Assembly (NCBI GenBank): GCA_002633005.1
Contig: NMRA01000029.1
Coordinates: forward strand, 512,956-576,955
DNA from: Phoronis australis
Lineage: Eukaryota > Animalia > Phoronida
Reading direction: 5' to 3'
DNA: 64,000 nt
In this document: one piece after another, positions 13,186-59,347 of the stretch
Position numbering within the stretch: position 1 is the first letter of the stretch
How the letters are laid out: the number at the start of each line of letters is the position of its first letter
Notes under the pieces: model-generated
Database searches by the model: none
Told to the model about the DNA's origin: nothing
The model's input: only the letters and a program-made list of their open reading frames with translations
Position numbers and translations under genes: made by a program

Positions 13186-16100
13186 TTACTGGTTAGTCAG
13201 TATGTCGTTGATCCAATCCAGGAAGAAGGTTACTCGCGAATAGACACTGGGGTAGCCTTCCGTCTGACATCCCGATCGTCCCCACGAGGTGGCGCCGTTC
13301 ACGTACCATTTCCCGTCGTTACCTTTGCATGAAAGTGGACCACCACTGTCTCCCTAAAGAAAAAACAGTTGTGTTCACATTAGTCAATATTAGTAAAACC
13401 ACATCTACGATTAGTACAGGCAGCCACAACTTCACCTCTCGCCAGTGAAACACTGTTCTTCCTTTTGGCGGCGCTTTCAAACTGTTTCCTTCAAAAACAC
13501 AACTCTTAAAATCCAGCAGTATTTCTGAACAACTGCAATATACCTTGGGTTGGTTTTTAACAGAATCTTCCATGTATGTGTATGTCACGAAACCCAGCGT
13601 TAAGGAAATCCTCACATCTAGGGGTTTCCTGCTCTGTGCCAAGCAACTGAAAACAGTTTCTTTAGGGACTGCTACGTTTTTGTATGTAAGTGAACAATTA
13701 AATTAAATTCAAATTAGGATTAGTTAGATCGCAGTTTTTCCTGGTAGCTCGATTCGAGGAAGAATTGCAACACGAAAGGTGCTTGTTTTTGACACCTTTT
13801 TAGAGTCGTGATGTGTCTTCATTTAACTTATATTTAACACATTCGTGTTCTCAGTGCTTTAAATTATAAATCAGCTGAGTTTTGCTAATGTGTTTGTGTG
13901 CAAACTAATACAATGACTACTTCAGAGATATTGTTCCGTCAAGGCCAATATCTACGGCTGGCTTGTTCGCGTTCCGTTCCACAGTGTTGGAACACAGTTA
14001 AGGCATTAATGTTCGTAAGGTAACAAGCCATTTCATGAGTCAGGTCAAATATTATAATTCAAAACTTGACATTTTTCCGTGATCAACTTGCAATTTGTGA
14101 GCGCATGCTATTTAACCAAATAGCTACGATTTGTAAGCATCCAAAGTTTTCAAAGTACTAAGGACAAATAAAAGGACATTTACATACAACTTGCAAGGAA
14201 TTTAACGCCTAGTACAGAAAATAAGTTCTATGGTACATGGGAAGTGTTTTTTCTAAAATTTGCTGAATTGTTTACAATTTCATTGGCTAAACGCATCGAA
14301 TCAATTATACTGACTTAGAGATACTTACATTGCAGGCTCCCGAGAGACCGTTGTTCAAGCAAACATGGCCGCTGTTGATATAACTGCTACCCCACTTGCC
14401 AGAGCATACTTCATTGGTTAGTACGTCAACCTTCAGCTCGTTCAAAATTTCACTCTCGTGATTTGGGTCTAAAAATTGAAATACAAGTAAGAATACGCAA
14501 CAGATAATAATAAATTACCCAAACTGTCTTTTTGTCCCTTAACAACGCGGTATGTGAAAGAGGGGCTGAATGTTGTCGGCGTTACGTCATATAAAATGAT
14601 GTATTTCCTCGCAAGTCACGCTAACAATGGGCTAAAATTTTCTTGAATTTTATTATTGTCAAGAAAATTGACAAAATACAGTTGCACTTGTCGGCCATGC
14701 TGTGCGCTAAATGAATAAAGAATTACCGTAATCGAACTCATAATCTCTAAAATTGAAAAATCTGATTTGAGAAGTTGCAGTTTTATACCTGAAAACCAAA
14801 TGTGTTTAAGAACATGTATGTATAACAAAATACAATGTGTAAAGTAAGCGTTTTTATTCGCTGAGCAGTAAACCTACCTTGTGTGTTACCCCATCCTGAA
14901 ATCCAACAGTTGTCGCTTCCGGCAATAATCATGTCCGCGGGAGGTAAACATGCGGGAATGATCTCATTGGTGAAAGTGACTGGTTCGGTAAACTTCACCA
15001 AGGCGATGTCATTGGGGAAGCCATTGCCATTTCCGTCGTAATTTGGATGCTGAAATAGAGTGTAACCACTTTAGGCCCACGTGACACGGGGCGTGTGCTC
15101 TTCATGTTTCAAGCTATTAAAGATGTGGTATTTTTACAAATACTGAAGCAGTTAGCACAGCTCGTACTGAGAAATATCGGCAACTTCGTAGCTCAAACAT
15201 GATTTATCAATGACCCGACAAAACTGACATCACTTTAGATATAGGCCTATCTATATAGTGTATAGACTTCATAAATCGAAGAGGCCAGCTTCTTAACAAG
15301 CTGGGCTAAGAAGAGCAGCAAACTCGACAGAAATAAGGATTGAGTTTCGTTTAAGCAAGACACTCGCAAAGCATTTATGGCGAAAATTTGCGCTTGTGGG
15401 ACGGAAATAGTTAATTTTATCCCGTAATTCAACATTCCTTCCTCGCCGGCCAATCACTTCAGTTGGAGTCATTTTGCTTGTGTACGCTAGTAAGGTAGTG
15501 AGCGTATTTGTGAAACTTTTTCCTGTTGCTCGTAGGATTTTGCGAGGCCTAGTGTGATCTTGCTGTTTCGCCTGACTTCAGTGAATGGCTGGCAGATAAC
15601 AACGGAAATCAGCGATGTGTGATAAAATCCCGAAAACACGACGGATTTTGTTGTTTTATAGCTCTGGTCAAAGCTAATAACTTCAAGAAGTCTATCCCAT
15701 CCAACAAATATCCCAATTGTTTTGGCTGTAAAACCGACTGTGTCCCTTTACGAGACCCTGTATTCGTAAGGCAGTTATTCGTTGACAAATTTTTGTATTA
15801 CCACTTACCATGAAAACTTTACTCAATAATTTTGTGACGGGAGGGGCGTCCTCGTGACCAGCTTCCGTCACATGATGTTCGCCAAGAACAACCTTCATGG
15901 AAGAAGTGCTGGATCTAAAAAAATTCCTTAGTATGTTATCCTAAGAGAACATGAAATTCTCCACACCTTAAATGCATAAGCGCTAAAATAAATTCTTGTG
16001 TTTTAGAAATAAGAATTTAATTTAAAATGAAATTTATTTCAAATAAAAAAGCTGTGTCGCGTGTGCGCGCTATCATCATTCGTTTCACTAGTGGTCAAAT

Positions 16101-19100
16101 CCAGCAGATTCACAATTCGGATGATGGCTCGGCCAATGTGCCGATTACGTGCCCGGAAACTCTCGTTCACATTACTGAATAACCCGCCTTTGGATTCCCG
16201 TAGTTCACCTACCCTGTAGGTGAAAACGTGGATGCGAATCAGTGGCATTGACTGCAACTCTTATGGAAGCAAGATTACCTCACTCGAACTGCGCCTGGAC
16301 ATGACTCATCCGGAACAGGTAGGAGGAATGAAGTTGACAAATGCGCAGATAACATTCTCTCCAGGGGAAATTTGAGTTTACGAAAATAACCGAGGTGCAC
16401 CGCGTGGCCATGACTGTATAATTTCTTCTGATCAGTTTCTAACATATTGCACTTGTACCCCTACGTGTACATGTGCAGTTTATTGGCGTATTAAGGCAAA
16501 TACGCCTGTATTTAATGTTGTGCCTATACACAGAATTAAGTGCATGCCACCATATGTATATATTGAAAGATTATAGAAAAACAGTGCAAAAGAAACTATT
16601 TACATGTATATGCCCTAACTGCGAAGCGATACCGAAGCTAGTTTACAGTGAAACAACACGTGTAGGTGAGATAAAAGGTCATATATATTATGACAAATAA
16701 TTTTTAACCGTTACAGCGGAGTAGAAAGTGAATTGCCTTCATATTAGCACCAAAGAATTTCACAAGAATGGCCAAAACCACATGAATAACACCCAATTTA
16801 GACCAGCACTGTCTACAAGGTACAGCCGCCAACGCCTTTATACATGTACATGTATGTGAATCTTGGGCGGGACATTTCAGTCAAGTAAGTTTTCATTGAA
16901 AAACATTTTTCCGATAAAGCCATATTGATCCAAACACGTTAATATTCGGTGTATTTGTCGGTAAAATCCAATAATGAATTGAAAAATACTCACCCGTCCA
17001 CACAATGTGCAGCAGTCATGGCCCAGTAGTTGTTGATAAGTGTCGCGCCGCAGAAATGGAAGCTGGACGAGGTCGTCTGCAGGGACGCCTGCCAAGGCCA
17101 CTCGTGCTTAGAAGCATGGTTGCCGCCAACGATACGAGATTCCCTGCGAACTCCGCATCCTGTTAGAATGTCGTGTTCAGTTGAGCAATGCGTTGACTTG
17201 TCTGATTACAGGTTATGCATTAAGTATAAAGGATCGTTTAGCACCACAAACGAAAAAGTTCTTCTGAATGTAGACTGGTGAAGTAATTTAATTTGCACAA
17301 AGGCGAGTAACTCTCGTTCATTTCTATGCGGTATAGATGTTCGTATTCTTCCGATTTGGTTGGTTCGTGAGATAAGGGTGTTCTTCAAAGACGAAAACGC
17401 AAAGTCCGGAAACTCAAAAAGGACTTTCAGTGACGCCTCGTTTCTATTTCATTTCCGGATCGTATTACATCGGAATTTCCACGTTGCGGATCTGCTTTGA
17501 CGCCCGAAAACCAGACGAAGAACTGTTATCTGTTTCCGTCTTTAATTATTTCTTAACAGGAAAATTTACCTTCAGCACTCAGGTCTGGTACACAGCATAC
17601 GGTTCCTGCGGCTGCGCAGTATTCGTTGACAGCCTGTCCAGTGCAATCAGCTTCCGCCACGCATTCGTAGCTACACGTGAGTCCTGCGGAAAATGAAACA
17701 ATGACCAAATAGCACATGGAGATAGTATGTGGAATGGATAATTGGAAACCTTGCCCTTGACTGCAATAAGTAGCGTGACGCTAACGTCTTTCCCAGTTGA
17801 CTTCGTGAGCCTTTAGTAGCGCGTACGTAGTATCTCCCTAATGTTCCGTCCGATTCATCTCCGCGTGTAACCAAAATAATGGGGTATTTTCAGATGAAAA
17901 GCGCTTGACATTTTCTGCTCAAATCATAGTGAACCGAGACGATAAAGCAGGAACAGACAGAAATCATAGTTTTCGGAGGAAAAGTATCTACATAAGCCCT
18001 GTAAATGTCTACTTCTTTCTCTTAGTATGTGCGTAGGAGGATCGTGGTGTAAACATACTGTAGAGGGCGCGTCAGTTCTGGTCTCAGTTTCACTGAATGT
18101 GTGGATTCATTAATGGATCATGCTTCTTTGGGGCAAATAAACATGGGCTGGGCTTGCCCTCAGCTACATAGTTTTCACAAGACAACAGAAGGAAAATTCT
18201 CTAGTTGTGCACATATTATAGAATGTGGAAAGCATGAAATTCATTTACAGATGCACCAAAAACACTCACGTTCAAATTCAATTTTCCAACCCGTTTTCTG
18301 CACACTGCTATCCGTTACGAATCTCATAGTGACCGTATTTGACGAGGCTTTGTACGTTGAAGCAGATGCGCCACACAGTTTTTTCGACGCACCGTTATCT
18401 TGAATCTGTGAGAAATATAATAAATATTTCAATTGGTCTTCCCAGTCCCGCGTTCGACAGACGCAAGACACTCGCGAGTAAAACTAGTGTAAACAAATTC
18501 TTGGCTTGTAACCCAGATAAACATCTCGCGAACACTGTGTGGTTTTCGTTTTTTACCAGGTGCTTTGCGTTTACGGAACACGGCTCGAAATTGTTTTACA
18601 TAGAATTAGATATGTAACTAAAGGGCGAACTGTCAGGAAAATGTCTTAATAACTCGAATCACATGAGCATTTTAGGCGGTAAATATTTGTTCCCAGGTAT
18701 TGCATAAAGAACGCTTATGAGTATAATTAGGAGTACGAGTCTGCATCTACTGCCGAAATAATGCATTTGAAAATATTTTTGTACGTAGGCGCATGCGCCA
18801 ATGCTTCAATATAGGCGCAAGGGACTTTCCGTATATGCCGTGGGCCGTCTTAAACTGGTAGGTTTTGCGTCTTTAATACAACCTTGCTACTTTTATCTAA
18901 ACAGTTTTTGACAAAATGGAAGCACGCAATTATTATCCATTATGTATGATATCAATCAGTGTTCATGTCAGCTTGAGACAGTCCCATATTTACTTCGAGT
19001 CTTTCTTGTTATGGCGTATTTTCTTATTAAAATTAGTACACAGACCTATTGGATTAGGGTTTGCCTGATATTGCACGAAGTCTACATTGTAACGTATTCC

Positions 19101-22014
19101 CCAATCAAAATCTGTTCAGCACCTTTTTGACTAACCCTCATCAATAAGCTGCGTTAAAAGAAACGGAATCTGTAATTCCAGTACAAAAGGACATGCGAGA
19201 TGAACTCTTTGAACCACGCATCTAATTTGGGATAGTAAAAGAAGCTGGGGTTCAAAAAACTAGCGTCAGGTGGAGCTATCTACTCATGATGTACCTCTAA
19301 GTAATCGTATTGGCATGTTGAACTGCTTTCAACATCAAAGGCCAGAAACTTGAGTGCGAGCTTTCCTTCAGGTATGGTGACGGTATACGTACAGTCAAGG
19401 TTGTTGTCGTAATTGTTGGGGTGGTTGGGGGACTGAATGATGCCCGATTCACCCTCAAAGTTGCCTCCACAACCTGCAAATCAAACACATTTTCAGCTAC
19501 TGTTAGAAGGCAGAAGTACGGTATTAACTCCAGCCGTGTATCAGCCAATCGACATATATACATTATAACTACAAGTATGTAAGTACTGGCTTGGATGAAA
19601 CGATCTCAAATAAGGACTCGATTAAGTTCCCTAAGTCTTGTGTATATCATGTGTCGTTCTTTACTCACAGATCTAATCTTGTTCTATCATTTTAATCAAT
19701 GAACTCCTCGTTGACTAATGACATTTTAATGCAACTGAAAACTGGACCTTTAGTTCAATGAAAATAATTAGAGATTTACTCTCGCCTTTTATATTAGGGG
19801 CGTTGCATGAAAATGTACCTACTTATTGAGAATGAAATTCCGAGTTCATTCTCCATTAGTATCAAAGGGAAAAAATACCAAGTAATGAAACTAAAACAGC
19901 GTAAGAAAGGACAATCAGTGTTTTCACAAACCCACATATACGCAATAGGTAGATTTAGGAAGCTTACTTAATGTCCGCTGTCCCTAGTTTCGGACTATTT
20001 CATGCAATCGGGAACAGATCTCTTCAGTCTTTATTATTTCTCACTTTGAGTCTGCAGGAAGTCGGAATCTTGGGAAACCATAGGTTGGCCTATCCGGCTC
20101 GTTTTTCTTTCTGGGACTTAAAACTTAAGCTGCACCGACCATGAAAACACGACCGCCAAAGGAGCTCAGTCATTATTTGATGACTGCAATTCAGCAACTT
20201 TCATGGATCGACGATACAATGGAGTTCAAGAGGACTTTTTTGCTTTGGATGAGAAGGAACTTGTATGGTCGTGGAGGGTGCTTCAGTGTTATTAACTTAA
20301 TAATTCTCTTGCAGATTATCATTACTAATAACTAAGGACATGCTTACCAGCGACAGGTGGCGTCGTGGTGGCTGGGTTTGCTGGGGTTGTACCGGTAGAT
20401 GGCGTCCCCGCGACGTAGGATGCTCGGAAACCCTTCTTCCTTACCGATGAATCCGACGAAAATGTAATTGTTATGGATCCCGTGAGCTCCAGAGGCTGAG
20501 GAGCTTCGGTGCCACACAGCCTGCGATAAGCACAAATACACACATAAAATCCGAACACGATAGTTGGATACTGTGATGTCGGGAGTTCTGTTCAACTTCC
20601 GTCGTTTTACTGACCCGTCTTTTTCTAGGGACAGTGAATTAATCTATGACATGACAAAAAGTATTTTTCAAGACTCTCTGTGGTACTTCAACTTCGTTCT
20701 TAAAGGCATCACTCTAATGCACACACCCTTCTTATGTGTCGTCTTGCCAGCATGAAACAATTAATTTATAGTTTCTGAACCGAACATCTCTAAACTTGGC
20801 GTTCTTTTGCCATATTTTGAACACAGTCGTGCCACCACGAGGACTACTCTGTGTGACGTTGTTTTGGTGAAACACTGTTTAAAACGACTAATTGGACTGT
20901 GTAAACATGTGTTCCGACACGACTTCTCGAGTTAAAATGTCGTATACTGACTTGTAAACTGAAGGACAACATGCCCAATTTTGCTCCAAATTTCCGACTT
21001 TCAGTAAAAGAAATAGTAAGGGAGTTTTGGACCGCGTTTACACTCTCAGATTGTCATAGAATAAGCCGATTCATTATGTATATACTAGGTTCAAGGGTGT
21101 TGGCGCGTACCAGTGCTTCAAGAAACGCCAGACAATTTTTATAAGCAGACGTCGCAAACTCTACTCACGTCGCCAATACCGTGTTTCCTCGTTTCACCTC
21201 CAAACTGTCGTATCTGCATTGAGAGAGTGACTCAATCTCAAATTCATCTTCGAACGTTAAAATGTAGGTGTTACTACCAGCCTCGAGGGTCCAGATGCAC
21301 TCGGCGTTATTGGGATAGTTACTCGGGTAATTCGGCGAGGAGAATGTTCCGCCGTTCACGGAGAGCACTCCACCGCAACTTTGAGCTGCAAAATACATAC
21401 CATCCTTACAGTATTGTGTGCAGTACTGAACCGCCATATAGGTCAAACGAGTGAACTGATAGGAACACGCGACACTATTAATTAAACCTAATTGCTTTGC
21501 AACATGTAATGCCAAAGTTTTCAGCTTGGCACCTTTTCTTCTTTACGCTTCCTGTAAGTGTTTGTCATCATGTGAGTGCTAAGTACTTTGAAAGATCTCA
21601 TTCCTTTCATCAAAATCTTTTTGAAAACTGCTTAATTAATTCATTTTATTCGGCTGTGTTTTAACAACACCCTAAAAGAATTATCAATTACACACAATGT
21701 CACATAATTTTCGACAAAATGTCATTCGCTGTTATTTAATCTCTCTTTAAGAGGGCTGACGTAGTAACTAGACAATAGAGAGGCATAAGTGTATTGCACG
21801 AGCATAACATCGATGTCAAGAACTTAGCGCCACAAATTTCGTCTGCACGCACAGGTACCCCAATTACCAACAATTAATCGAGCAGACGACTTCACATGAT
21901 ATCTAAGAATACTAAATGTTCATAAAAAGTTGAGAAAAGGAATCGAAAATATTCACCAGACTCACCATGCGAAAGCGCTGCCAGGCAAAGGAGGACACCA
22001 AGATGTGCCAACAT
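13186..22014 (-). CDS. Secreted CUB-CUB-(6-Cys module)-S1A serine protease, chymotrypsin/elastase-like, ~539 aa, 11 exons
   Basis: Exons: 21966-22014 (signal peptide [16 protein letters not shown]), 21169-21385 and 20348-20520 (CUB1 [42 protein letters not shown] plus P/T linker), 19295-19473 and 18270-18405 (CUB2), 17570-17683 (6-Cys module), 16994-17159 (CG..R|IVGG..WPWQ..TAAHC), 15809-15914, 14878-15049 (NDIAL), 14329-14468, 13186-13353 (GDSGGP..TSWG). All introns are GT-AG, the total is 1620 nt in frame, and the catalytic triad is intact. Confidence 0.95.
15620..15795 (-). repeat. Interspersed repeat family, copy 2 (inverted, intronic)
   Basis: Reverse-complement similarity to 3665-3810. 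Confidence 0.55.
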
Positions 22015-22063
22015 GTTTGAAGGTTTCCAAACTGAAGGTGATTGTTCCAAACGAAAACCCGCC

Positions 22064-22071
22064 CTTATATA
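22064..22071 (-). promoter_or_regulatory. TATA box (TATATAAG) of the protease gene
   Basis: About 50 nt upstream of the ATG, with Inr-like TCA motifs 32-38 nt downstream. Confidence 0.6.
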
Positions 22072-22800
22072 CCTGGAGACGAAATCTCAAGTATGAGAAA
22101 ATACCATACGAAGTGCAAGATATTTTCCTTGAAAATTTCTCAGGTGTTTGTGACTTGATTATTTTATTGTTCCCGTAAATTATGACGTGAATACCATTAA
22201 AAAGACTGTCGTCGGTTATTTATCTAAATTGAAATTACATCAACCGAGTTCACCTTCACGACCCGAGGTTTAAAGGAGCATGCCACTCAAAAAACAACCT
22301 AATTTGTATCAATTTAGATCGAGTAGTTCTACTCCAAAACGACACGTACGGTTGCGTTACCTGACTCCTGAAGGCAGACGGAGGTGTTGAAATTATCCAA
22401 TGACGCCATCGGTTTCACACACAGTCTGTTCAGCAGTTCACAACACGGGTTACTGGTGTCAGCTTATCGCTTGAAGTCATCGTTTAACGCCAATAAATCA
22501 TCAAACTTCGATGTAAAACCCTTAAAAATACACCGAGTTGTTATAAAAACGTGTTGTTTTATTTCGCTCTTACGGATTTATAGGTATTTGGCCGAAGCCT
22601 ACAAAGTTCGGCAGGCCAATAAGGTTCGTAGCGGAGTTTGGCCTGTTCGGAGATAATTTCGAAGTATTTTCCGTGAGATACAGACAGGAGAACCTAGATC
22701 TGTGTTGTTTGGACTTGTGATTTTTTGAGTTCTAAACACAAAACGCTTGTTATCCCGGCCAGTGGCTNTTATTTATTACATTATCCATTCTATTTTAATA

Positions 22801-29192: not shown

Positions 29193-32100
29193 CTACGACT
29201 TGGCCACACTGGCTAACATTTTGGCAATCTTGTCATCGTTCCTTAGAATGTTGTGTTTCGAAGCAGCGATCAAGTCCATTTGATCTGCAATGGCTTGTTC
29301 AACCTCTTGAAGCTGTTGCCTTAGGGGCTCTATTGAAGATTCTGTCACGCTACAATAACACGACAACAATTAGATCATGCTAAACCACCCACTCCTTAAC
29401 CAATTCCTGCCCACCTCTGTTTAACCATCAGCATCAAGACATGTTGCATATTTCTCTAATAGACAATGGACAGCCCACATTAGATATAAGCCACGCCTCT
29501 AGCACTAAGTTTCAACTACATCTGCTTTGCAATTTAATTCTATTCATGCTGCCTGTACTGCCAATCATCAGTACACAAAACGCCATGTTATAACAAGATC
29601 AGACCCACACACAGTTACTAAGCCTTCAAGATCTATAGTTGATGGCTGTTCTCCCAACTGAATCCCACTACTTGCCAAAAAGATCACCAATGTTCGCTCT
29701 GCCTTTAAGGTCTTCAAGCGGTGCTTTTTAATCCAACAAACCAAAAGCCCTGCATCACAATCAAACTACCCGCTTCAGCTCTGCCTTCAACCCCCACACG
29801 TTGCCTGTTCAGCCATTTAATAACACAAAAAGAACAAGCGGTGCCTGTACTACCAATAACAAAATACAAAAGACCACACCCCTTCCAGCAAGCCCCACCC
29901 ACCTCTGCTCTGCTTTCAATTCCTGAGCGTGCTGTCTGTTCTCCCTTCGCCACATGGCCAGTTCCTTTTGCATGGAGTCCAGATCCTCCTGCACGTAGTC
30001 CATGATCTTGCCCAAAGGATTGGCACTGCGCGTCAGTGACTGAATGCTGCCGCGCAGTCGATCTATCTCCTTCTGAACCATCTCGCGCTCCTTGCGCCGT
30101 GTCGCGTCAGACACAACAGGTTTTTCCTGCGCCAAGAAAAACTATGTCAATTCAACATTTGAGCTTCTGTGTCTGCTGTTTCATTATGATGATTGACACA
30201 AAAATAGTTGACCCACTTTTTACCATTTATTACGCAAGCTGGAATACGTTTGTCAAATATCTTCCAAAAACTGTAAGTTTAGCCCAAAAATGAAATGTAA
30301 AATTCAAAACACCATACAGGTGATTTGCAAATAAATCAGAATGATTGACTAGTAATAATTTCAATCAGATTCCAAGTCCCAGGCCGCCATCACAACACTC
30401 CAATAAACTTACGATCTCCTGTTTTCTGGCTTGAGGTTTCTGAGCGCCCCCTTCCAGCTCCTTCTTGGTCTCAAGGATCTTCTTGACCAGCCCACCGTGG
30501 TCACCAGTGTCTTCCACCTCCTCAGATGGCGGTGGCTGTAACAGACAAGGCAACATGAGCCTTTCTCACCAAGACTGAACAATACTGAACTATCGAATCT
30601 ACTCAGGAAAAGCCAGCTTGGGGTTATTCAGGCGAATAAGCTCAACTACTTGTGTATAAACCCAGCCTCCAATCATGCAGATAAGCCCACAAGCTCAAGT
30701 AGAATTTTGTCCACACTTTCCACTCATCCCAAACAAAGTTGACTTCCCTTCTCGTGTAGACCCTAGTAAATAGTCACTTACAGGGGCACAAAATTTCCAG
30801 AACCACTATTCAGGGGAGACAATTTGTTCTTAAAATGCAGGTCCCAGTTAATGACTGTTACCCAGAGTTGCCTAGAAAGACTAATCCTGACAATGCACCT
30901 TCATATCTGATATGCCACAAGCTTCTGGGATGGTTGCAGTGAACTGCATGCAAAAACAGCCTAACCAAACAGGTCGGTTTGTCGGTACACTTCCAAGCTC
31001 ATAGCAGTTATCTAGCTGAAATTAACATGAGTCGCAAGTCCCTGCTTATTACAAGTCCTGTGATAGTAAGGAAAGTTGCCCAGTAGTGCCGTGTTGTAGT
31101 GCTGTATTCTACCATACGGAAGTTCTGATAGAAAGCCCCACAGTGTATATTTGGAAAATGGCAGATTTTTACCTTGCTAGCACACCAAATATAAGCCTGA
31201 ACCTATTTTTTGAAACAGATTCCAAACAGAAAATGTGACAGAGATATTAATATGAAATGATCAAAACCCAGGGCTTAAGACATCTTAAAGTCTAACTTTA
31301 ACGGAATTTTCTTATTTTAGATGTATTGGGCTAAACTGGTAGTCCTAGCAAAGCCTTAACAAAATAAGAAAACACGAGTTTAATCATGCAAATGTAGGCC
31401 CGTCAAATGATAGCTGAAGCCGCCTTTTCGCGCCATATTGCATCACTGCAAGATCCCTGCACAAACAACAAAAGGCCGGTAACAATTGTATTGAATAAGG
31501 ATCTGAATACAACACCATTGCGTGCGGATGTTATTCGCAGCCGTTTGAATTAAAAGGTGGTTCTCGTCGTGACGTAGGCAAAAGCGAACCAATACGCCTA
31601 ACAGTTCGTTACATTTGACAATTTATGGCACGAGTGGGCTCAGAACAATGCTCTAAATATACTGCAGGATCCAAATTTACAGGTGTTACCGTTCAAGATA
31701 GACTTTAAGGTGCCAATGGTAAATGTTCATAAGTTTATTTTGGCACGTTTAACATGCCAAAATAAACTACATCCTGTTTCTCATAAAGCCATATTCTTGT
31801 TTGACACTCACTGACACTTTTCATTCTTGGAAACTCAACAAGCCGTACAAACTTTTAATTACATCTTTGAAAACAGGCTCATGGTCCTATATTCCGAAAT
31901 GGGCCTACACTGGGGGGAGCCTGTTTGGTGAAATTTTCAATATACTGCCTAGTGAAGTATCGTACTCTACTGCACTGCTGCACCAGTCACATTTGCCACG
32001 TTTCAAATGCCATAAAATCAACAAAGAAACCAGTCTGATAACATCCCACACTATACATACAACAGAGAAGCAACTTTACTGTGTCAACTAAGCTTTCCTC

Positions 32101-35100
32101 AAATGTTTGAAAACATCCATAACCTGACCGTAGTAATGACAGCAGAATGTTCCATTCTTAAAAATATCAAAAGTTACAGTTAATTTCAGGATCAATTCTA
32201 GTATCCTGGTTCAATTCCAATTTCAGGCAAACGGCTGAATTTTTACCCTAATCATTACAGTGGTATCTTGGCTTGATGTAGCATAATGCCAATCTTGGGC
32301 AAGCCTCGCCCCATCTCATTACCTCATCCACCACCTCTGCCTGAGGAGCAGACTCCTCCACCATGAATGTGTCATCATCGTCAGAGTTCTGACCATCGTC
32401 CACTATGAGATTACTGACTGGTTTGCCGCTGCCGACTCTACAAAAATGAAAAGTCTCCCTTTAGAAATTAGCGCAACTTCCACTATTCGCTATAGTGCTA
32501 GTCTTTACAACAAGAGGTCAGCACAATCCTAACTTTCCCACTACAGGATTCTCTGTGGCTACGACAGGTGGGACGCTGATATGTGCGAGGTCCAATCTGT
32601 AGTTTAGTCAAATTGATGGCTTGAAAATGCCACATGTTTTGAACAATGTCCATCTTTTTGAAAACTACGGAGAGATCAACAAAGCGATCAAGTGATAACA
32701 AGCTCCAACAAGATCCTTCTTCTTATACTATGTCTCTCTGGATATGTGTGCAGTAGTCGTAAACTGGCCAATTTCTTGAAGAATAGACTTTTATAAATAT
32801 AATTTACTATAATCTAACGAAAATCTCAGCTATTCTGCTTGCATGCTTTGTTGAGTAGTTGTGAAGCATAGCAAGAACATTCAAAGAAGCCTCAAGTGTT
32901 AGGAAACATTATTTCATCATGGCAGAAACAAATAGCACAGACCTCTTTACACACATGTGGAAACATAGCATACTCAGTGGATTGCGAGAAATCACCTTCC
33001 GCACAACAGACAGAAATTTTCAAACACTAAACAGTTGGAAGAGGAATTTCACACAATCCATTATTCAATACATGTGCAAGAAATGGACAATGTAAAAAGG
33101 TCCGTGGGCCTTCGGACAAAAAGCACCTTTTGTTTTAGACCACTTACAGAAGATATCGGTTTCACGACCAAAAATGCATTTTAAGATTAACGCTAGATGG
33201 GATAGACTTCTTGAAGTTAAGGCTACAACACAAAATCCGTTGGCTTTGTAATTTCCATACAAATCACCAATTCCAGCCATTGTTTGCCAGACATTTGATG
33301 GAGAAAAGTCTGGTGACTTGACCAGTTACACGCGTTTCCACTACCCAGCCACTTATCAATTGAGACTTAGCTCCAGTTGAGCATTACATTGCAACTGCAA
33401 GGAGTTGAATCTGCCATGAAGTTCATTATAAAAAAGTCCCTTCAAATCTTTAAGATTGGTCTCGGGTGCCTTATTCACATTATAAATGATGTCTAGGCTT
33501 CAGAACCTAAACTTCATTAGCGCTTCAGACAAGAATCACGACAGTTGCTTGTCAACGTAGATTAGTTTCAGTTGCCGAAGTAACATGGCCGTCACAGGCG
33601 TTTCGTGGCAACAAATTTGAATTGAAGCAAAAGATAACCTCATGACAACAGCAAATACGACAGTGAAGAAAGGCAGTTTTTGGCACAAAAACATGGTTAA
33701 TAAAGGCTTTGACAACTAAAAAATAAATAAGAATTCTCCACTGAGTAACATGTGTCAGTCAATATCGTTATGAAAGCAACAGGGGTCATACCTTGCTTCT
33801 TCATCCGCATCGACTGCATCTTGTTTCTTGATCTTAGGTGGCGCTGGCCGTGCACTACTGGGACGCGCCAGCTTGCGACTGCAACAACAAACAATGTTAC
33901 GGAAAACTCTACTATTTGTCAACAAGCTACCAGCACAGCTGCTTAGAACTTGTATAATTACAGGGACAGGCCAGCTCATGACAATTACAATCAGTGACGT
34001 GGACAAAACAATCGGTTTACATAATTGCCAGGGCATATTACAATTTACAATCAAGAGATGCCAAGGTATCTACCCCACAAACACCGTCAAGTCATGCCTT
34101 CTGAATCACTTATGAATAGTTATTGAATTTTTCTAATTTTTATACAATGCCATTTGACAATGACTAAAACACAAAGCATAATGGTGGGAGTATCTATGGG
34201 GTCAAGACAGTACCTCTCATTGCATTGTATTGTATTGTTTTGTATTGAATTGTATTGTATTGTATTGTATTGTATGGTATTGACCTCTTATTTGCTCCAA
34301 CTGCTTTGTTTTGTGAGTACGTGGCTTTACACGTCATAATACTATTGCCAGAGTAAAAATTTGCCTTAAGTTGCTAAGAACTTTGACGTACGCTGCAGCT
34401 ACTTGAGGCGGTAGGTCATCCTCTCCGACAGTAGGACCATTGTTTAGGTCGGAGTCTTCCCTCCGCTGATCTCTCAGACGCTGTTCCTCGTCATCTGTGG
34501 AAAGAATACGTCGGCATGACACTCACAGCGTAGGAACACAAACTAGACAAGCTAACACAGACTAACAGCACTACTTTGCTGACTCATCAACGAAGGCAGA
34601 ATAAAAGCTCTTATTTTCATTTCAATCAAATTTCAGCAGTTTCAAGAATTTGACCATAAGTGCATGATAGCAGTTTTCCAAAAATTTGATGATTCAGATC
34701 GAAACTTGTCAAAATTATGGCAAAAACTAAGAAGAAAATCAAACAAAAAATAACTGCACATAGGGTCATTTGAAAATTGGCCAGTAACCAAACTTTGCTT
34801 TGAAATGTCAGCGACAATTGAAGAGAAGAAAAATCGGCAACTTGGTAATAATCGAATATAATGAGCTCGCATTTTGAGAACCAGTTTACTCCACTGAATA
34901 ACAAGCAACAAACTATTACTCAAAAATGTGGGCGCATTATCTCCGACTAGTAACATCAACTTTTTGAAAACTACTACGTGCAGCACATAAAGACAACCAC
35001 AGGACTTTCAGAGCTGATACACCATGGCCATGTTTTACACAGTGCTAGTCACTGCTTCAGTGGTATCATTACACAGAGCAAGAGTGGCAATAACAATGGG

Positions 35101-38100
35101 GTCAATAAGTGAGTACTGTCTTACCAAGGATACCATGTGCTGGAACGTGGAAGAGTGCCAAAAGATTGAGATAAAAGTAAAGCACCGAAAGCCATGACGG
35201 TTAAGCAGAGAAGTCGCACGTTTGAAATTCAAGGCAGATATAGCAGAAGTGAGTGGATGCCAAGCGAGGAAGGAATTTAAAGCAAAAGAACTGGTGTACA
35301 GAACAGTCAGACGTCTGCTCCTTAAAGGCGAAAGCAACCTTTTTTCATGTCACTTTTAGCAAAAATAAGGTTCATTGTTTATCCCAGACACATTTTTCAC
35401 TTAAATTACAGCTTTTCGTAATTTGATTAATTTCTCGTCTTCTACTCTGGAAGTGACGTTTTGAGAGGCAAGAGTTTCGCGCCTATTTCTTTTCATTATA
35501 GTCCGACTGTGAGAGCTGTCGAGTCAGTCATTGTTCTACCTCGGTTGTGATAAGTTCGGTCGTCGTTTGCTTTTGTTTACAAGTCAGTCAACATGCCACG
35601 CTGTTGCTGCGTACCGGGATGTACTCATTATCGTCTCACACGCGCTTTGGGTACCTTGCGTCGCTTTCCGAAGGATGACACACTTCGCCGTACTTGGCTA
35701 GCTCGTTCACGTGAAGAACGCAGCGCTACCCATCCACACAACATACAAAGCAGTGGAGGGTTACCGAGTGTGTGGCAAGCATTTTCTGCCGTCAGATTAT
35801 GACAGATATGTACGCTGAATTGATGAAGGTCCCTGCGAAACAACNACGTGCAGCACATAAAGACAACCACAGGACTTTCAGAGCTGATACACCATGGCCA
35901 CGTTTTACACAGTGCTATTCACTGCTTCAGTGGTATCATTACACAGAGCAAGAGTGGCAACAGCAATGGGGTCATAAGTGAGAACTGTCTTACCAAGGAT
36001 ACCATGTGCTGGAACATGGAAGAGTGCCAAAAGATTGAGATAAAAGTAAAGCACCGAAAGCCATGACGGTTAAGCAGAGAAGTCGCACGTTTGAAATTCA
36101 AGGCAGATATAGAAGAAATGAGTGGATGCCAAGCGAGGAAGGAATTTAAAGCAAAAGAACTGGTGTACAGAACAGTCAGACGTCTGCTCCTTAAAGGCGA
36201 AAGCAACCTTTTTTTTTCATGTCACTTTTAGCAAAAATAAGGTTCATTGTTTATCCCAGACACATTTTTCACTTAAATAACAGCTTTTCGTAATTTGATT
36301 AATTTCTCATCTTCTACTCTGGAAGTGACGTTTTGAGAGGCAAGAGTTTCGCACCTATTTCTTTTCATTATAGTCAGACTATGAGAGCTGTAGAGTCAGT
36401 CATTGTTCTACCTCGGTTGTTATAAGTTCGGTCGTCGTTTGCTTTTGTTTACAAGTCAGTCAACATGCCACGCTGTTGCTGCGTGCCGGGATGTACTCAA
36501 TATCGTCTCACACGCGCTTTGGGTACCTTGCGTCGCTTTCCAAAGGATGACACTTCGCCGTACTTGGCTAGCTCGTTCACGTGAAGAACGCAGCGCTACC
36601 CATCCACACAACACACAAAGCAGTGGAGGGTTACCGAGTGTGTGGCAAGCATTTTCTGCCGTCAGATTATGACAGATATGTACGCTGAATTGATGAAGGT
36701 CCCTGCGAAACAACGCCTGAAGAAGGGTACCATGCCGTCGCAGTTGATTCCCGGCAGTGCCCCGTCGCCAACCCTGAGAAATGCGTTTTTGAAGCGAGAA
36801 GCCTCGCAAGCTGTGGCCACAGTGACTGGAGGCACTTCATCTACTGTCACCTGTGCCTCCGAACGTACCCCATTGCGTGCAATTCCGGGAACTAGCAGTG
36901 ATTCGCCCTGTGCTGCTGTCTCTAGCCCAGAGCCTGTAAGCAGCCCTGCAGCGATGTTGAGTAATGGGAGTGAATACAGGCCCAGTTCGACACCCAGTGA
37001 AGAGGACAATTCGTCATCCAATGAACAGATCGGTGAGCCTAAGTTTGATAAGTTTATTGTGGACTTGTATTGGAGCTATTTGGAAGGTGCCAGGTGTGTG
37101 GCGAGGGAGTCACACGGCGGGATGTAAGCAGTTTGGGTGCTCAGTGGGAGTGTGTCGCGGGACACTCGGGCAAGTGGGACAGTTCTTCCTCTGTACGTGA
37201 CACGATAATGAGTACACCTTAGTACGCAGCAACAGCGTGGCATGTTGACTGACTCGTAAGCAAAAGCAAACGACGACCGAACTTATCACAACCGAGGTAG
37301 AACAATGACTGACTCGACTGCTCTCACAGTCAGACTACATGAAAAGAAATTGGCACGAAATTCTTGCCTTCCAAAACGTCACTTCCGGAGTAATTAATTA
37401 AATTACGAAAAGCAGTAAATAAGTGAAAAAAATGTCTGGGATAATCAACGAACCTTATTTTTGCTAAAAATGACATGAAAAAGGTTGCCTTCGCCTTTAA
37501 TTATACCAAGAGGAATTAGTAAATACAAATTGTAAAAGAGAAATCAAAGCAAATCAGATTTCTGGAGAAAACATCAGTTATAAGAGTCCCTCGAGTACCC
37601 CGTCAAAAAACCTCTAAAGTCTAATTTTCTGTCCACACATCTACAAAAGCCGACAAGGTGAATTTGAGGCAACGACCATTCATGCTACATGGAGAAAAAG
37701 GCCAAAGGTCGCGACAGTTCGTTAAGTCAGTATACTATAAGATAAGATTCGGCTCGTCAGCAACACTAGCTGAGATACTTACCATCATCATCCTTCTGGT
37801 TGGGCGGTGCACGTCCTGCAAAACCACAGCAAGCAGACATGCAGAGGAGTTAGATGGTGAAACACGCCGGTTGAATAGGTCACACAAAAACACGTGACCA
37901 GATCAAACTGTGAACGAGCCATTCTTCTTTCGGTGGAGTTTCCCAGAAGCTTAGCAGTCAAGTTCAGAAAGAAAATTAGGAATTTTCACTCGATTATACA
38001 CCTGGTAGCGTTGTCCAGGATGAGTCGATATTGTGAATTTTTATTCAACTGCTGAGCTGAGAAACGCCAGAACGCCCGGTGGGATTCAGTGATTTTTAAA

Positions 38101-41100: not shown

Positions 41101-44100
41101 GTCATCCTTGCTCTGCGACCGCTTACTGTCTTCAGCGCTGTTTTTCCGGTCAGCGCTACTCTTGCGATCTGTTTTTTCCTAGAGACAAAAAGCTGCATCA
41201 ACCGAGAGTTATCCATGAATGATAAATTACCTTAAGTTTTTTCTGCATTTCGCATCCAAAATAGAACACATAACACTCTCATTCAATTGCTTCTACTGAC
41301 AAGTTAGAATAGATCCACATTTCAAATAAAAAATGAGTGTTATCTACAGACCACAGAATAAATTTTCCTCAGCATTTAATGTCCAAAATATACCTGAGAC
41401 CACTCTTTACTTTGTTGCTTCAGCTGACAAAATTTGATTCATGTACCAAATAAAAACAGACAGACTGTTCAGTTTACCATCACAATGTCCAATGTAGAAA
41501 AAGGCTTACATCTTTGTCCTTCCGTCGTCGCCTGTCTGAGCTGGTATCTCTGTCTTTATTCCTGTCTTTTTTAGAAGCACTGGGTGGTTTACCGTCACCC
41601 TTGGAATCTGTCTTTTCCCCACCAAGAACTTTACTGACATATTCATCGTTATTTACCTAAAATAATTGTTAAAACACAGTAAAAATACAAAAAATGTGCT
41701 CATAGGGGCAGCTGAAAAGTAGCAGAAAGACGACTGTCTGGGAGATTGGCCATTTAACTCTGGAGATCGACCAACACTTGTCTTCATCATTTAATTTAAG
41801 TCAAAACAATTGAATACATATTTGACACATGACTACATCACAAGCCAAAAACCAGCACAAGTTAGTTGTTTAGAAGACTGCATGGCAACAGTCACTTACA
41901 AGGGTCCCGGATTTTTGAGAACCAGTTTAAAGCCCGTTATTTAGTGGAGAAAACTGGTTATCACAATGCAGGGACCCCTGTAAGCGACTTTTACAGACTG
42001 ACTTTCATTATAACTTCCCCACTGTATTTAACACAGAAACTCATCAAGATCACAATAAATGGACCTTTAGATGACTTACATTTTTACTGACTGCTTCAGC
42101 CAATGCTTGCAGAAACTCATTGGTCTTCTCAGGTTCATGACCGGCCACTATCTTGCTTGGTCGTGCGGACACCTGCCGGCCAATGACCATACCTAAAAGT
42201 ACACATTACCCAGGCATGAACAAGTCAAGGGTGCAGCTTTTGTACCACCCAGGGTGGCAAGTGGTTATGCGGTGAACTCTGGAGGGTAGAATACTACAGT
42301 ATGTAGGAATACTATGTATGTAGGATACTACAGTATGTAGGAATACTATGTACGTAGAATACTACAGTATGTAGGAATACTATGTATGTAGGATACTACA
42401 GTATGTAGGAATACTATGTATGCAGAATACTACAGTATGTAGGAATACTATGTATGTAGAATACTACAGTATGTAGGATACTACAGTATGTAGGAATACT
42501 ATGTATGTAGAATACTACAGTATGTAGGAATACTATGTATGTAGGATACTACAGTATGTAGGAATACTATGTACGTAGAGTACTACAGTATGTAGGAATA
42601 ATATGTATGTAGAATACTACAGTATGTAGGAATACTATGTATGTAGAATACTACAGTATGTAGGAATACTATGTATNGAAAACAGAATAAAATGAAATTG
42701 CCACTTAAGTGGGGCACAGTGTCCGTTGGATCCGCCTGAAAGTCGTTGAAATCTGTTGTTATCTTCATTACAAATACACTCACTAAATTTAATAAAGATC
42801 CTGCAGTGGGTTTAGGAGATACAGCTATAGGCACAAAACAAAACAAAACAAAACTACCACTAGGAGGAGCCACAGTAGTCAGTCGCCATCATCAAACGGT
42901 TGACAGAAGGGTGGACGCCAAAAACAAGATTCGGCCAGGTGGCGCAAAATACCTCGATTCCATCCAAAAACAGGAGGATAGCGTCACCTCACCAATAGAT
43001 GCCTAAATTCAAAATGTTTTGAAAATCTGTTGAGGACCTTTGAACATACAGAATTAAACGTAAAAAAATGAAATTGTCAATAGGGGGCACACCAGCAGTC
43101 AGATCCGTCCAAAAGTTGTCATCGTTCATTGCCTAAATCATATAAATACACTCTCTAAATTTAGTAAAGATCCTGCTTACGGTTTAGGAGATACAGGCAT
43201 AGGCGCAAAAAACAAAACTGCGACTAGGAGGCACCACTGTATTTGAAGTTGTCGGAAAATCATCATCAGCCGTCCACTTCACAGTATGAACGTACATGCC
43301 AATTTTCATAACCATTCTTCGAGCGGTTTGGATGATAGAGGGGTGGACGCAAAAATCATACTAGAAAACAGTAAAAATGGCCACTAGGTGCCGCAATCTA
43401 CGTCGCATCCATCCAAAAACGGGAGAACAACATCATCTCACAAATACGTGCCTGCAAATTGAATTTTATGAAAATCCGTTGAGGACTTTTGAAGATACAG
43501 AGGTAAACGTAAAAAAACTAAAATTGCCACATTGGGGCACACCGGTAGTCGGATCCGTCCGAAAGTAGTCATCATCTGTTGTCAACGTCATATAAATACA
43601 CTTCCTTAATTTAGTAATGATCCCTCAAACGGTTTAGGAGATACAGCCGTAAGTGCAAAAAAACAAAACTGCCACTAGGAGGCGCCACAGCAGTGTAAAT
43701 GGTCGGAAAATCACCGTCAGCCATCCACTTCATAGTAAGAACATACATGCTAATTTTCACAATCATCCTTTAAGCGCTTTGGTTGATAGAGGGGTGGACG
43801 CAAAAAACAGACTCAAAAACAGTAAAAATGGCCACTAGGTGACGCAAACTAAGTTGAACCCATCCAAAAACGGGAGGACAGCGTCATCTCACTAATAGGT
43901 GCCTATTTACCAAATTTTATGAAAATCCGTTGAGGACTTTTGAAGATACAGAGGTAAACGTAAGAAACTAAAATTGCCACTAGGGGGCACACTGGTAGTC
44001 TGATCCGTTCGAAAGTTCACTCATGCCGTCCCATTCATGGAAGGAAAACATATGCAAAATTTCATGAACATAAATTAAGACGTTTTTGAGATAGAGCAGC

Positions 44101-54598: not shown

Positions 54599-56327
54599 CT
54601 AACCAAATCTGAATGGTTTTCTGTTAGCGTATCTCAGTTCAGGTGGATCGGGTACAGCATCAATGCCATCTGGTGGCAGCTCTAATCCAGGGGCTTCTAC
54701 AGGATAAGACTCGTCCTTAGCCGCAGGCTTAGGTCGCTTTGAGTCGTAAATCTTCACCTTGGCGAAATATCCAGGTTCACGATTTTTCTGGCCCAATGAC
54801 TCAAAAACGCACTGGTCATAAGCTGCTTGTTGTCGTTTACACCTGAAACAATGACACCAAAGTTGTCAACAAAAACTGACATCTTGACAACCATTAATCC
54901 ATAAGAGATTGTTTTAGGACTAAAAATAACTGGCCACAGCTTGCCAGTGTTCTCCACAATATAATATTCAATCACAATAAGAATCACAAAATTCGAGCAC
55001 ATGTTCGAAAGTCCAAATTCAATCTGTGGAGAGTGTTTTGATGTGATAACCTCATTTCTAAACTTGAGTCTGTTTGCACCAACCTCTTGCATATTTACAT
55101 TGCCACGATGTTTCAGTCCGTCATTTCTCCCGCCACCTTCAGGTGTTACAACATTCTTGGAAGAACGAGCACAGGTGTATGGCACACTCGCTGTGGTCAA
55201 TGACGAGCACTGTTTTATTTTAATTTTTCTTGAGAAAAATACCACCCAAGGATGGCTGGGGAAATAACCAACAGAAACATCATGCCAATGCAAATAGACT
55301 ACAGGTTGGTGTGAATAGACTACAGGTTGGTGTGAATAGACTAATAGTGTAATAGATTGCAGAAACCATGTTGGTTGCTGGAGCATCACCGGATTTACAA
55401 TCCAAAATAAGTTTACTTGAATGCATGAGCATCTACGGAGACGTGGCAATTACCTGCACAACAAAATGGCCATAAACCTAAAATATTACACGATGTTTGG
55501 TATAATCTTTGATTTTTCGCAAATTTTCCAGTATGAACGTGTATATCCTTGCATACACGTTAGCTGCACTCACGGCTTGTCATAGATATGTGGCCACAAC
55601 ATGACATTAACAGAAAAGCATGTGATAATGAAAATTCTTTTTAGACATGTATCACCACTGATGACCCACTGTGCACATACGTCTCGACTGATGCCCCATG
55701 AAACGGTCCTAAATAGGGACTCAAGTAAGTTCCCTAGACCTACGGCATTCTTGTGGGCTTGTGAAAACACCGATTTGCCCTTTCTTACGGTGTTTGAATA
55801 TTATTAATAAGCCAATTTTTTTCTTAAATACAAATCGAGTGTGAACCCTACATTGAATTCTCAATATCATTGAAAACATGGGTGTCGAATTAAAGGCTCA
55901 GTTTTCAGTTGATAATTATTAGGAAATGTCTCAGACAAAGACCTCATAATAAGGATAAAATGATAGAACAAAAAACTACATCTATGAGTAAAGAACAAAA
56001 CAAATAAAAATTTAGAGAACTTAGTTGAATCCCTATTCCATGCAACCAGGCACTGGAGCCTATTCAGACACCCCCAAGACTGCACATCACTGAGAAATTT
56101 GGGGGGTACAGCAGGCTTGGTAGCGATACGAAGGGAGACTACACTCACCTCCAGTACTGCATATCATTGCCTGACCGGTCCACGCACTGCCAGTATTTGG
56201 TGAAGTCTTCATAACAGTGCTTTTTTAACTTCTGGAAGAACTGAAGGCCACACCTGGTCACTTCTTTACCTTCGTTCAAACATATCCTGTGGTCGAAGCC
56301 ATTCTCTCGCAGGCACAGCATGAATTC
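54599..56327 (-). CDS. NDUFA8: NADH dehydrogenase (ubiquinone) 1 alpha subcomplex subunit 8, last two coding exons (56149-56327, 54599-54842); 5' exon(s) lie beyond the window
   Basis: EFMLCLRENGFDHRICLNEGKEVTRCGLQFFQKLKKHCYEDFTKYWQCVD..YWR|CKRQQAAYDQCVFESLG..PGYFAKVKIYDSKRPKP. CX9C-type cysteine pattern and motifs typical of NDUFA8, GT-AG, in frame. Confidence 0.93.
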
Positions 56328-58536
56328 CTGCAATAGAAATCAAGAGCTAGAACATGCAACAAACCTGCCTTCAGTCTGTTAGCGTTTGAATAAGTGACAC
56401 TTTCCATTACACAACTGGTCTCTAAAGGCTACTTGTTCCTTACTGATATTAGAAGGAGTTCTGGGCTCGGAGAGTACTGACAGTTCATTAATACTTTAAC
56501 CAGGGCTTCATAGGTTGGCCACTTTTCACTCCCCCCCCCTTTTGTTGTCACCCATCATCATGATATAACCCCCCGTTGAGCCTTTAATTACACCATCACA
56601 GCCAGTTTGTAGGACTTCCCAAAATGAACAGTGTCAATAACTGTCAAACAAAAACCAATAGCTGTCTCGCGGTGATAAAAATCACGTTCTTTGACTGAAA
56701 ATTCACAACAGATATTTCTTGCGAGGTCTCGCTTTTATAACGAGATACTGACATTATTACAACTCAACCCAGACTACATGAGAAACAGAACATATACATG
56801 AACCGATTATCCTATACTTCTAATCTGTAATTCCCTGTCATGCTGGCTGAGCTGAGGCCGAATTCATCATCAGAGAAGTCTTCCCTCATAACTGTGAATG
56901 ACAGGGAATTGACAGGAAAGTAAGTGATGTGGCTAAGCCATTCTGTTTGTCACCCTAATAGTTATTACCAGACATTTTTTGCTGTTAACAGAACTAGCCG
57001 TCATGATGGGAAAACGGCATTTTGTCCAGGATAACTTCTGACTTGTGCTGTACTCCCAGGATTTTATTTGGGGGACTAAAAGGTAAAAACTTGGCCATAT
57101 CTAAGGTGTTCAGTGCTCACATAAAGAAACTCCCCAACTACATGTTTTATTGAGCTTTAAAATTGGCTTTCATGGTTAGTGTGTGTCTTAATATGTAAAC
57201 AAAGGATTGTGGGAACTCAATCAACCAATTTGAGGCAACTCAGTGACCTAGTGACAATTGAGCTATGTCATCGAATTCCTTGTGTGCGCAAGATATAAGA
57301 ATGACAAGAAACAAGAGATGAACTGATCAACTAGATAGTACATAGACAGCGATTACAGGAGTTAAGTTTAATCTCTCTTGTAAGTTTATCCAGCAAATGA
57401 TTCACCTATGTCACTCTTGGACTGACCTATTCATATGGATCCACAAATATCTATGCTTTCAGAAGCACACACATCAATTTTTGCTTTCTGCAAAAATGCT
57501 AATTGGTTTTTCAAACAATGCCAAATAAGTTCCTGGTGGCTCTAAATTTGTCATACTGGTAAAATATAGAGGTCAACTATTACGTCAACCACTTTCCTCG
57601 ACCGAATAATGGGCAGGAAAGTGGTTCTCAAATATTGTGACCAGTTCATATTGCCACAGCCATCTTCCTTCCTCATCAAGTTCGGGACCAATCTAAACGA
57701 CCAATTGCTGCTTTTACCAGGTAAAAGATCACCTGAAAATGAAGGGCATTGTTCAATCTACCCAAATACTTTTTTCAGGTGCTTGTACTTTGATCGAAGG
57801 ACATGCTTCCAAATGAGTTTTCACCTCGTACAAAATACATTCTACACTCAAAACTATCACTTAAAAATGAGCTTACTTTCTTCAGTGATCCTTTCTGCTT
57901 CTACACATATCTTCGATGAAGCATATCTACTAGAATTAAGGTGACTTTGGAGACGAATTCCAACTCCACTTTTTGGTCACCGCACATGCGATAACCTCAA
58001 AATATTTCAACTGAGTCACTAGAGTTAGACAAAGGCTAGCGCGAGACTGAGCGAAGCGCGTGACCTGACACGTGACACTTGCAAAATAGCATGGGAAGAA
58101 AATATCAGGTGGAATTTGTGAGTTTTGTGTCCCTTGGACTTTGTGTTCATTACCAGGCGTGATTTCTCGTAACTTCTTCAAAATCGAACCCGTTGAGAGA
58201 AACTCAAGCAAACCTCAACAAAATATTCACAGATTACTGTTCAAGTAATGTTGACTAATTGTATTCAGAGTCATGGTATGTGTTAATTATAACTCCATGT
58301 GCATTTATGCATGTTTCATTCGATTTTATTTGCTGTATTTTGAAATGCGTAATTTTTTATGGGGATGTACTATTGCCCCTGTATGCCTGCAACATCCAGG
58401 GTGGTGTAATTACCTATCATGAATCAAGTTAGGCAACACGTAGCCCCTCGGTTGGCCAGTTAGGGGCTACTATACTTCCCATCGCTTTCTCTACGCATTT
58501 CGTTCCATATATTATAAATAAGCAGTGGGCCAAATC

Positions 58537-59347
58537 TAGGCAATGACCATCACCTCTGTTGGCCCGAACCAGAGGCGATGCAGAGGCTATAGGCGATCTG
58601 TACGCCGGAAGCTTTTCGGCAAATTATGCCTCGCACCGGCTAAACCATCAAAGTCACGTTGTTATAAATACCTTTTGCGCATAGAGGAACACCTGAGGAG
58701 GTTGTCGATTTGTTTAATTCCTTCCAACTCGAACAAATACTCCCATTATCAAACTTTTTCTTCGAGCAGTCCCTATTTCAGTTCCCAAAATCGTGAACTC
58801 ACAATTTTTATACTGCACATGCTCGCTAGGTGATGTGAATTCATGACCTCAATCTTTAAATAGGCCAAAGGTGAGTCATTGCGGTCTTTTCAGTCAAATG
58901 TCCGTTTCCAAAATGCCACCACTTATACTTGTCTTTAATTGGCGTTACTTGAAACTGATTGTATTTCAATGAATCATTGTTTGTATTTGCTAAAAATAAA
59001 TGCTGTTGATATGACATTTAATAGTTTTTGTGCAAATATTTGACATTTTAATGTTTAACAACACGGCAAATGCACGGCTGGTTCCCGGCAGCACGTACGA
59101 GAAGGGCGGGAACTTCAGCTTTCAAAGTTCGCCGGTAGGTCCGCAACTTCTGACCTTCGGCCTGGTTAAAAAAATTAAAAAGTTGATTTCACGATTTTGG
59201 GAACTGAAATAGGGACTGCTCGAAGAAAAAGTTTCATAACGGGAGTATTTGTTCGAGTTGGAAGGAATTAAACACATCGACAACCTCCTCAGGTGTTCCT
59301 CTATGCGCAAAAGGTATTTATAACAACGTGACTTTGATGGTTTAGTC
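58537..59347. mobile_element. MULE-like element, first copy, truncated by the gap and lacking the solo LTR
   Basis: Same sequence as 62721 onward. The empty site ggtatttataac is at about 59313-59324. Confidence 0.8.

Follow-up and report, generated by a model that had tools for sequence, protein, structure and literature searches.

A predicted defensin-fold module in the slot before the catalytic domain of a CUB-bearing serine protease gene of Phoronis australis

The question raised by this locus of Phoronis australis is what a small cysteine-rich exon encodes between two CUB domains and the activation site of an S1 serine protease. A sequence-only reading of the window (the whole stretch of 64,000 nucleotides analysed here) likened the exon to clip and beta-defensin domains, proposed that it had been acquired by exon shuffling, and suggested either an undescribed proteolytic cascade or a protease with a releasable defensin-like peptide.

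The protease gene, in an intron-rich animal genome, lies on the minus strand, with 11 exons from 22014 down to 13186 and an open frame of 539 aa (Table 1). Behind the signal peptide, exons 2-3 encode CUB1, exons 4-5 encode CUB2 beyond a Thr/Pro linker, exon 6 supplies the module and exons 7-11 form the S1A protease domain. Pfam finds two CUB domains and Trypsin in the exons flanking the module (PF00089 on three of the five protease exons scanned), which upholds the CUB-CUB-module-S1 architecture first read from the letters; the placement of exon 6 directly before CG..R/IVGG is likewise correct, between the second half of CUB2 and the activation-site exon. All ten introns have GT-AG borders, and raw RNA reads of X2 support all ten, with 81-222 reads per joint (e.g., 169 for the joint of exons 1 and 2, 21385-21966). 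Furthermore, X2 read ends accumulate at 22022 and 22026, just downstream of a TATA box and an initiator-like site. The signal peptide suggests a secreted protein. The upstream neighbour on the same strand is a TRAF3IP1/IFT54-like exon (29812-30141, minus strand; Pfam MIP-T3_C, 4.3e-26).

Table 1. Features of the protease gene, in positions of the window.
Feature	Position	Strand	Content or evidence
TATA box	22066..22071	-	Initiator-like TCAGT at 22031-22035
Exon 1, coding part	21966..22014	-	Start codon and hydrophobic signal peptide (by eye)
Exon 2, CUB1 first half	21169..21385	-	Pfam CUB 1.5e-15; read joints
Exon 3, CUB1 second half and Thr/Pro-rich linker	20348..20520	-	Pfam CUB 4.4e-05; read joints
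Exon 4, CUB2 first half	19295..19473	-	Pfam CUB 3.4e-17; read joints
Exon 5, CUB2 second half, last residue Arg252	18270..18405	-	Pfam CUB 2.7e-06; read joints
Exon 6, phase 1-1 six-cysteine module, residues 253-289, acidic	17570..17683	-	Splice sites; read joints
Exon 7, Cys291, Arg298/Ile299 activation site, His341	16994..17159	-	Pfam Trypsin 1.7e-15
Exon 8, protease domain	15809..15914	-	Read joints at both ends
Exon 9, Asp394 and Cys414	14878..15049	-	Pfam Trypsin 5.6e-13
Exon 10, protease domain, Gly481 (position 189)	14329..14468	-	Read joints
Exon 11, coding part, Ser487, Gly509 (216), Ser520 (226), stop codon	13186..13353	-	Pfam Trypsin 1.3e-11; PDB alignment

Exon 6 is 114 nt long and in phase 1 at both ends, with a pyrimidine-rich acceptor ending in cag before it and a gtaaat donor after it. 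Its translation gives a module of 37 residues with the pattern C-x3-C-x5-C-x8-C-x6-CC, so the exon is as the sequence-only reading had described it. The plus-strand translation of 17570-17683 is interrupted by stops, and coding runs on the minus strand from 17683 to 17570. The earlier reading left inclusion of the exon to be settled by RNA, and inclusion proves to be constitutive in the transcripts: 99 raw X2 reads with 51 start points cross the exon 5-6 joint and 98 with 50 start points cross the exon 6-7 joint, which is also present in an X1 contig from another study. These two inclusion joints are the only ones listed among reads over 16900-18500 at a threshold of 3 reads; no joint skipping exon 6, a form that would preserve the reading frame, was seen there, and skipping therefore has fewer than 3 reads. 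A relaxed six-cysteine pattern ending in CC has a single match when all six frames of the window are read and matches 0 of 100 block-shuffled copies, and no second copy of the module was found within the window. As for exon shuffling, the symmetric phase fits, but the CUB and protease modules are also in phase 1, and neither a donor nor a module-less orthologue was found. Big defensin and beta-defensin genes, the vertebrate beta-defensins among them, likewise carry a phase-1 intron directly ahead of the cysteine-rich part (PMC7203481, excerpt); since CUB1, CUB2 and the protease start in phase 1 too, such an intron before the module does not discriminate.

Expression of the gene is restricted: of three comparable RNA samples, one has it switched on. 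Over 16900-18500, reads of at least 99% identity numbered 502 in X2, 6 in X3 and 0 in X4 (three samples from one study, with 12.8 million, 11.3 million and 11.0 million reads examined, respectively), and the level in X2 is about 90 reads per kb per million. Over exon 7 (16994-17159), 2-3 reads per run in X3 and X4 differ from the window at the same 12 places, of which four are synonymous and eight fall within six changed codons, and the loose ends of these reads into exons 8 and 4 differ too; they represent a close paralogue, or a divergent allele, with low expression in these samples. Interspersed repeats, intronic or upstream, at ~15630-15710, 16607-16700, 19670-19940 and 22270-22300 are marked in all runs by divergent reads that come from both strands.

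The catalytic triad is intact (His341, Asp394, Ser487). Counting from the catalytic serine and alignment to 1bru place Gly481, Gly509 and Ser520 at positions 189, 216 and 226, and Asp189 is absent. Such a pocket would be of chymotrypsin/elastase type, with predicted cleavage after hydrophobic residues; a Gly/Gly/Ser pocket marks a chymotrypsin-like clade in Tenebrio (PMC11172050, excerpt). When exon 11 was compared with PDB sequences, the top four of 256 matches were elastase (1bru), proproteinase E (1pyt and 1fon) and chymotrypsin C (4h4f). Pancreatic elastase 2 and chymotrypsin C (1bru, 4h4f), the best PDB matches of this last exon, share with the phoronid enzyme Ser226, Arg/Ile activation and nine cysteines that fit four internal bonds and the 1-122 link, whereas position 189 is Gly here and Ser in them. 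They are not known to have a large N-terminal accessory region. Exon 7 points in the opposite direction from exon 11, its PDB matches being led by the cascade enzymes plasminogen, kallikrein and factor XI. Cys1 and Cys122 of chymotrypsin, whose bond retains the N-terminal chain on the activated enzyme, have their counterparts in Cys291 and Cys414. Clip domains of arthropod proteases likewise stay disulfide-linked to the protease after activation (PMC10643895, excerpt), and the same tether is predicted here.

The module contains six Asp/Glu and no Lys, Arg or His, with a net charge of about -6. Its single-sequence AlphaFold model (pLDDT 76.8) is arranged strand-helix-strand-strand, with strands at 7-9, 17-21 and 27-31 and a helix at 10-13. 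In a wide structural search with this model, 11 of 48,161 chains reached a Z of at least 2, and all 11 are beta-defensins or defensin-like, although the scores are weak (Z 2.0-3.0); human beta-defensin 2 is the best match (Z 3.0, rmsd 1.9 A, 32 aligned). Vertebrate beta-defensins and other trans-defensins (1fd3, 2lwl, 6qeu, 7t9q) have three antiparallel strands and six cysteines, and the predicted fold of three strands and a short helix would resemble theirs, with rmsd 1.7-3.2 A over 30-36 residues. A beta-defensin-like fold is predicted for the module, the signal being the uniformity of the match list, given weak scores. The modelling check proposed with the sequence-only reading has thus brought weak beta-defensin-fold matches, but Foldseek of the model against the PDB returned none. 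Neither a clip nor a tick-inhibitor chain is among the matches of the wide structural search, which does not exclude those folds. Clip structures exist for PPAF-II, PAP-2 and Grass, but a control, the clip domain of a metagenome locus (L039), gave too poor a model (pLDDT 49) to be informative and found no match.

Sequence searches recovered no family for the module. Pfam gave none for the 37-aa module or its 75-aa reading frame (the HMMER filters discard most matches above E 0.1), the NCBIfam profile search gave no match, PDB sequences gave three chance matches only (E 0.9-6.3), and the ESM Atlas search gave no usable match and a low recognition score. Two matches among 1.84 billion representatives were rejected as repetitive proteins lacking the cysteine pattern of the module. 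A 37-residue query is weak in power, so these missing relatives do not show that the module is unique. It had been conceded at the outset that the module might be a degenerate LDLa or EGF domain, and neither identity holds. Against an HMM of 66 LDLa modules (chosen by pattern from 123 fetched proteins; spacing 6-4-6/7-5-8) it scores 0.4 bits, and Pfam is silent; LDLa has a D-x-S-D-E motif and no CC, whereas the module ends in CC with another cysteine pattern. EGF modules have C4-x-C5 spacing and no terminal CC, with which the pattern of the module disagrees, and there is no Pfam EGF match.

Resemblance to clip and beta-defensin domains, by comparison, is borne out by the fold search, at weak Z, and by a spacing in common with a Pfam CLIP_1 domain. 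Among 39 metagenome loci, a six-cysteine module ending in CC occurs only in L039, a clip-A protease homologue, where it is a clip-A (CLIP_1 at 3.3e-14). The spacing is 3-5-33-6-0 in L039 and 3-5-8-6-0 in the module, so that four of five intervals are equal and the difference is a loop of 8 residues here versus 33 there; both have C-V after the second cysteine and V-C-C at the last cysteines. The L039 clip-A also has C-x3-C, in keeping with the earlier remark on short C1-C2 spacing in clips. BLASTP of the module against this clip gave no alignment. Arthropod clip-A domains of the PPAF-II type (PF18322, CLIP_1) likewise have six cysteines, a CC end, a position upstream of S1 and the spacing 3-5-n-6-0. 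The module also agrees with a working rule for insect clips, a cysteine doublet near the protease and four cysteines upstream (PMC11172050, excerpt). Disulfides 1-5, 2-4 and 3-6 are the pattern of clip domain and beta-defensin alike (PMC7203481, PMC11335235, excerpts), and clip domains are described as having the beta-defensin cysteine arrangement (PMC11335235, excerpt); the labels 'clip-like' and 'defensin-like' may describe the same thing.

In its predicted structure the module resembles the core common to clip and beta-defensin, yet it cannot be placed in either group. Between a clip and its protease there is a long linker, and here 8 residues separate Cys282 from Cys291. Furthermore, no Pfam clip profile matches, and the module is internal, after two CUB domains, whereas clips are N-terminal (PMC10643895, excerpt). 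With vertebrate beta-defensins it shares the terminal CC, but a beta-defensin is a free and usually cationic peptide, and the module is acidic, has a short C1-C2 spacing and is embedded in an enzyme as an internal exon of a 539-aa protein. A speculative idea, which we consider doubtful, is that the module is a minimal proto-clip, a beta-defensin-fold core on a mobile phase 1-1 exon, and that clip-A grew from such a core by loop expansion. The host of this proto-clip would be a chymotrypsin with CUB domains and an intact catalytic site, from an animal that is not an arthropod; were the idea true, clip domains and trans-defensins would be related by descent, and the existence of a clip-like cascade beyond the arthropods would be indicated. 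If relatives prove homology to clip-A, the link between clip domains and trans-defensins becomes testable; if not, the module adds one more accessory domain to a protease family in which domain shuffling is well known.

The preferred reading, to which a probability of roughly 0.55 is given, is a chymotrypsin/elastase-type zymogen secreted in the gut or a gland and carrying a tethered defensin-fold docking module. The signal peptide would direct secretion, and a trypsin-like enzyme would cleave Arg298/Ile299, as the motif suggests. The Cys291-Cys414 bond would then hold the CUB-CUB-module chain on the catalytic domain as Cys1-Cys122 does in chymotrypsin, the Gly189/Gly216/Ser226 pocket would favour hydrophobic residues before the cut bond, and positioning of the enzyme at a substrate, a surface or an activator would fall to the CUB domains together with the module. 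The module is likely to be a compact acidic docking unit, and it probably remains attached after activation rather than being released. We infer the gut or gland site, as the tissue label of X2 is not given. Several observations count against this reading: a bulk digestive enzyme would be expected at more than the modest level in X2, the PDB matches of exon 7 are led by cascade enzymes, and the structural evidence consists of Z scores of 2-3 with an empty Foldseek search.

A true clip-type cascade protease, in which a short-loop clip-A-like module recruits the zymogen to an immune, clotting or developmental cascade and the CUB domains are extra docking sites, is possible though unlikely. The working clip rule, the spacing and the C-V and V-C-C residues held in common with L039, the defensin-type cysteine arrangement ascribed to clips and their persistent disulfide link all fit it, and activation of the zymogen requires another protease. 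It has to contend, however, with the silent clip profile, the failed BLASTP alignment and the internal module 8 residues from the interchain cysteine. Moreover, the clip-A proteins of Tenebrio are all non-catalytic (PMC11172050, excerpt), whereas the triad is intact here, and the counts given there imply trypsin or trypsin-like identity for every one of the 39 clip proteases that are catalytic, whereas Asp189 is absent here. The cascade role imagined in the sequence-only reading is not borne out. The pocket is of chymotrypsin/elastase type, the closest PDB sequences to exon 11 are pancreatic enzymes, and a digestive organ is the reported source of CUB proteases that have a small disulfide module in the same slot (PMC4398375, excerpt).

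It is improbable that the module instead acts from within the protein to inhibit or regulate, as one half of the tick carboxypeptidase inhibitor might, so as to guard the zymogen or restrain a co-secreted peptidase. That inhibitor is built of beta-defensin-fold domains, and a regulatory role has been proposed for similar peptidase-fused repeats in rusticalin (PMC6339383, excerpt), but the inhibitor has two tandem domains where a single one is present here, the rusticalin repeats are spaced C-x6-C-x6-7-C-x8-C-x7-CC, and the module is without a Pfam match. Most improbable is that the module is freed as an antimicrobial defensin-like peptide, the other suggestion of the sequence-only reading. The predicted fold would suit such a peptide, Arg252 directly before the module is a possible trypsin site, and anionic big defensins exist (PMC7203481, excerpt). 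However, the module has no basic residue and a charge of about -6, the Cys291-Cys414 bond would hold it after the activation cut so that two more cuts would be needed, and no basic site lies between its last cysteine and Cys291.

Known systems offer partial parallels to the docking enzyme that is preferred here. CUB-(LDLa)-S1 proteases such as scorpion midgut TsCLTSP and tick HlSP are also secreted S1A zymogens with CUB (PMC4398375, excerpt), and scorpion midgut trypsins all have CUB and sometimes LDL domains (PMC4398375, excerpt). Some of these proteases have, as here, an acidic three-disulfide module of ~37 residues directly before CG..R/I (excerpted source); the phoronid module occupies the LDLa slot and is like LDLa in size, disulfide count and acidity, but differs in ending in CC and not being LDLa, with two CUB domains and a chymotrypsin-like rather than trypsin-like pocket. 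Three CUB-LDLa-S1 units in Clavelina P0083 are a precedent for the slot. A transcript labelled as ovochymase, from a digestive organ of a syllid annelid, clustered with a chymotrypsin of molluscs (PMC6350857, excerpt). Rusticalin, from marine invertebrates, has beta-defensin-like six-cysteine repeats N-terminal to a secreted peptidase, but there are two repeats of other spacing, the peptidase is a zinc MD-clan enzyme rather than S1A, and there is no CUB (PMC6339383, excerpt). A separate metagenome locus (L001:12-1046) encodes a signal peptide, a short six-cysteine region that is ShK-like by eye and has no Pfam match at E 0.01, and a trypsin domain, again a small disulfide module ahead of an S1 protease.

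A search with exon 7 found one bivalve fragment (Pinctada) at 71% identity, a single match that hints at a lophotrochozoan, and a search with the CUB2 exon found no relative. The best 120 of 7,058 matches in an alignment search were all multi-protease proteins, and none of the 123 proteins fetched has a similar module ending in CC. A full-length relative was never reached by these searches, so they do not establish that the architecture is rare. The sequence-only reading allowed that the architecture might already be described; no description appeared in the literature searched, where subscription journals are thinly covered. CUB proteases and clip proteases are known already, as are peptidases with defensin-fold repeats joined to them; the CUB-CUB-six-Cys-S1A combination did not appear in that literature or in the 123 proteins and 39 loci examined. 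A predicted beta-defensin-like fold is likely to serve here as an accessory domain inside a serine protease, occupying the slot of LDLa. Because no profile detects the module, automated annotation would label the protein as a plain CUB-CUB-trypsin and miss it.

Elsewhere in the window, a 3.35-kb direct repeat of 98.4% identity (55977-59321 and 60164-63505) flanks an 816-base N gap and is likely an uncollapsed haplotype or assembly duplicate. An 880-base tandem duplicate of 96.9% identity (34968-35844 and 35838-36714) has a single N at its junction, and inverted partial copies of it lie at 37197-37500. Tandem repeat arrays with a unit of ~34 bases and a longer diverged unit occupy 42286-42676 and 42937-44016.
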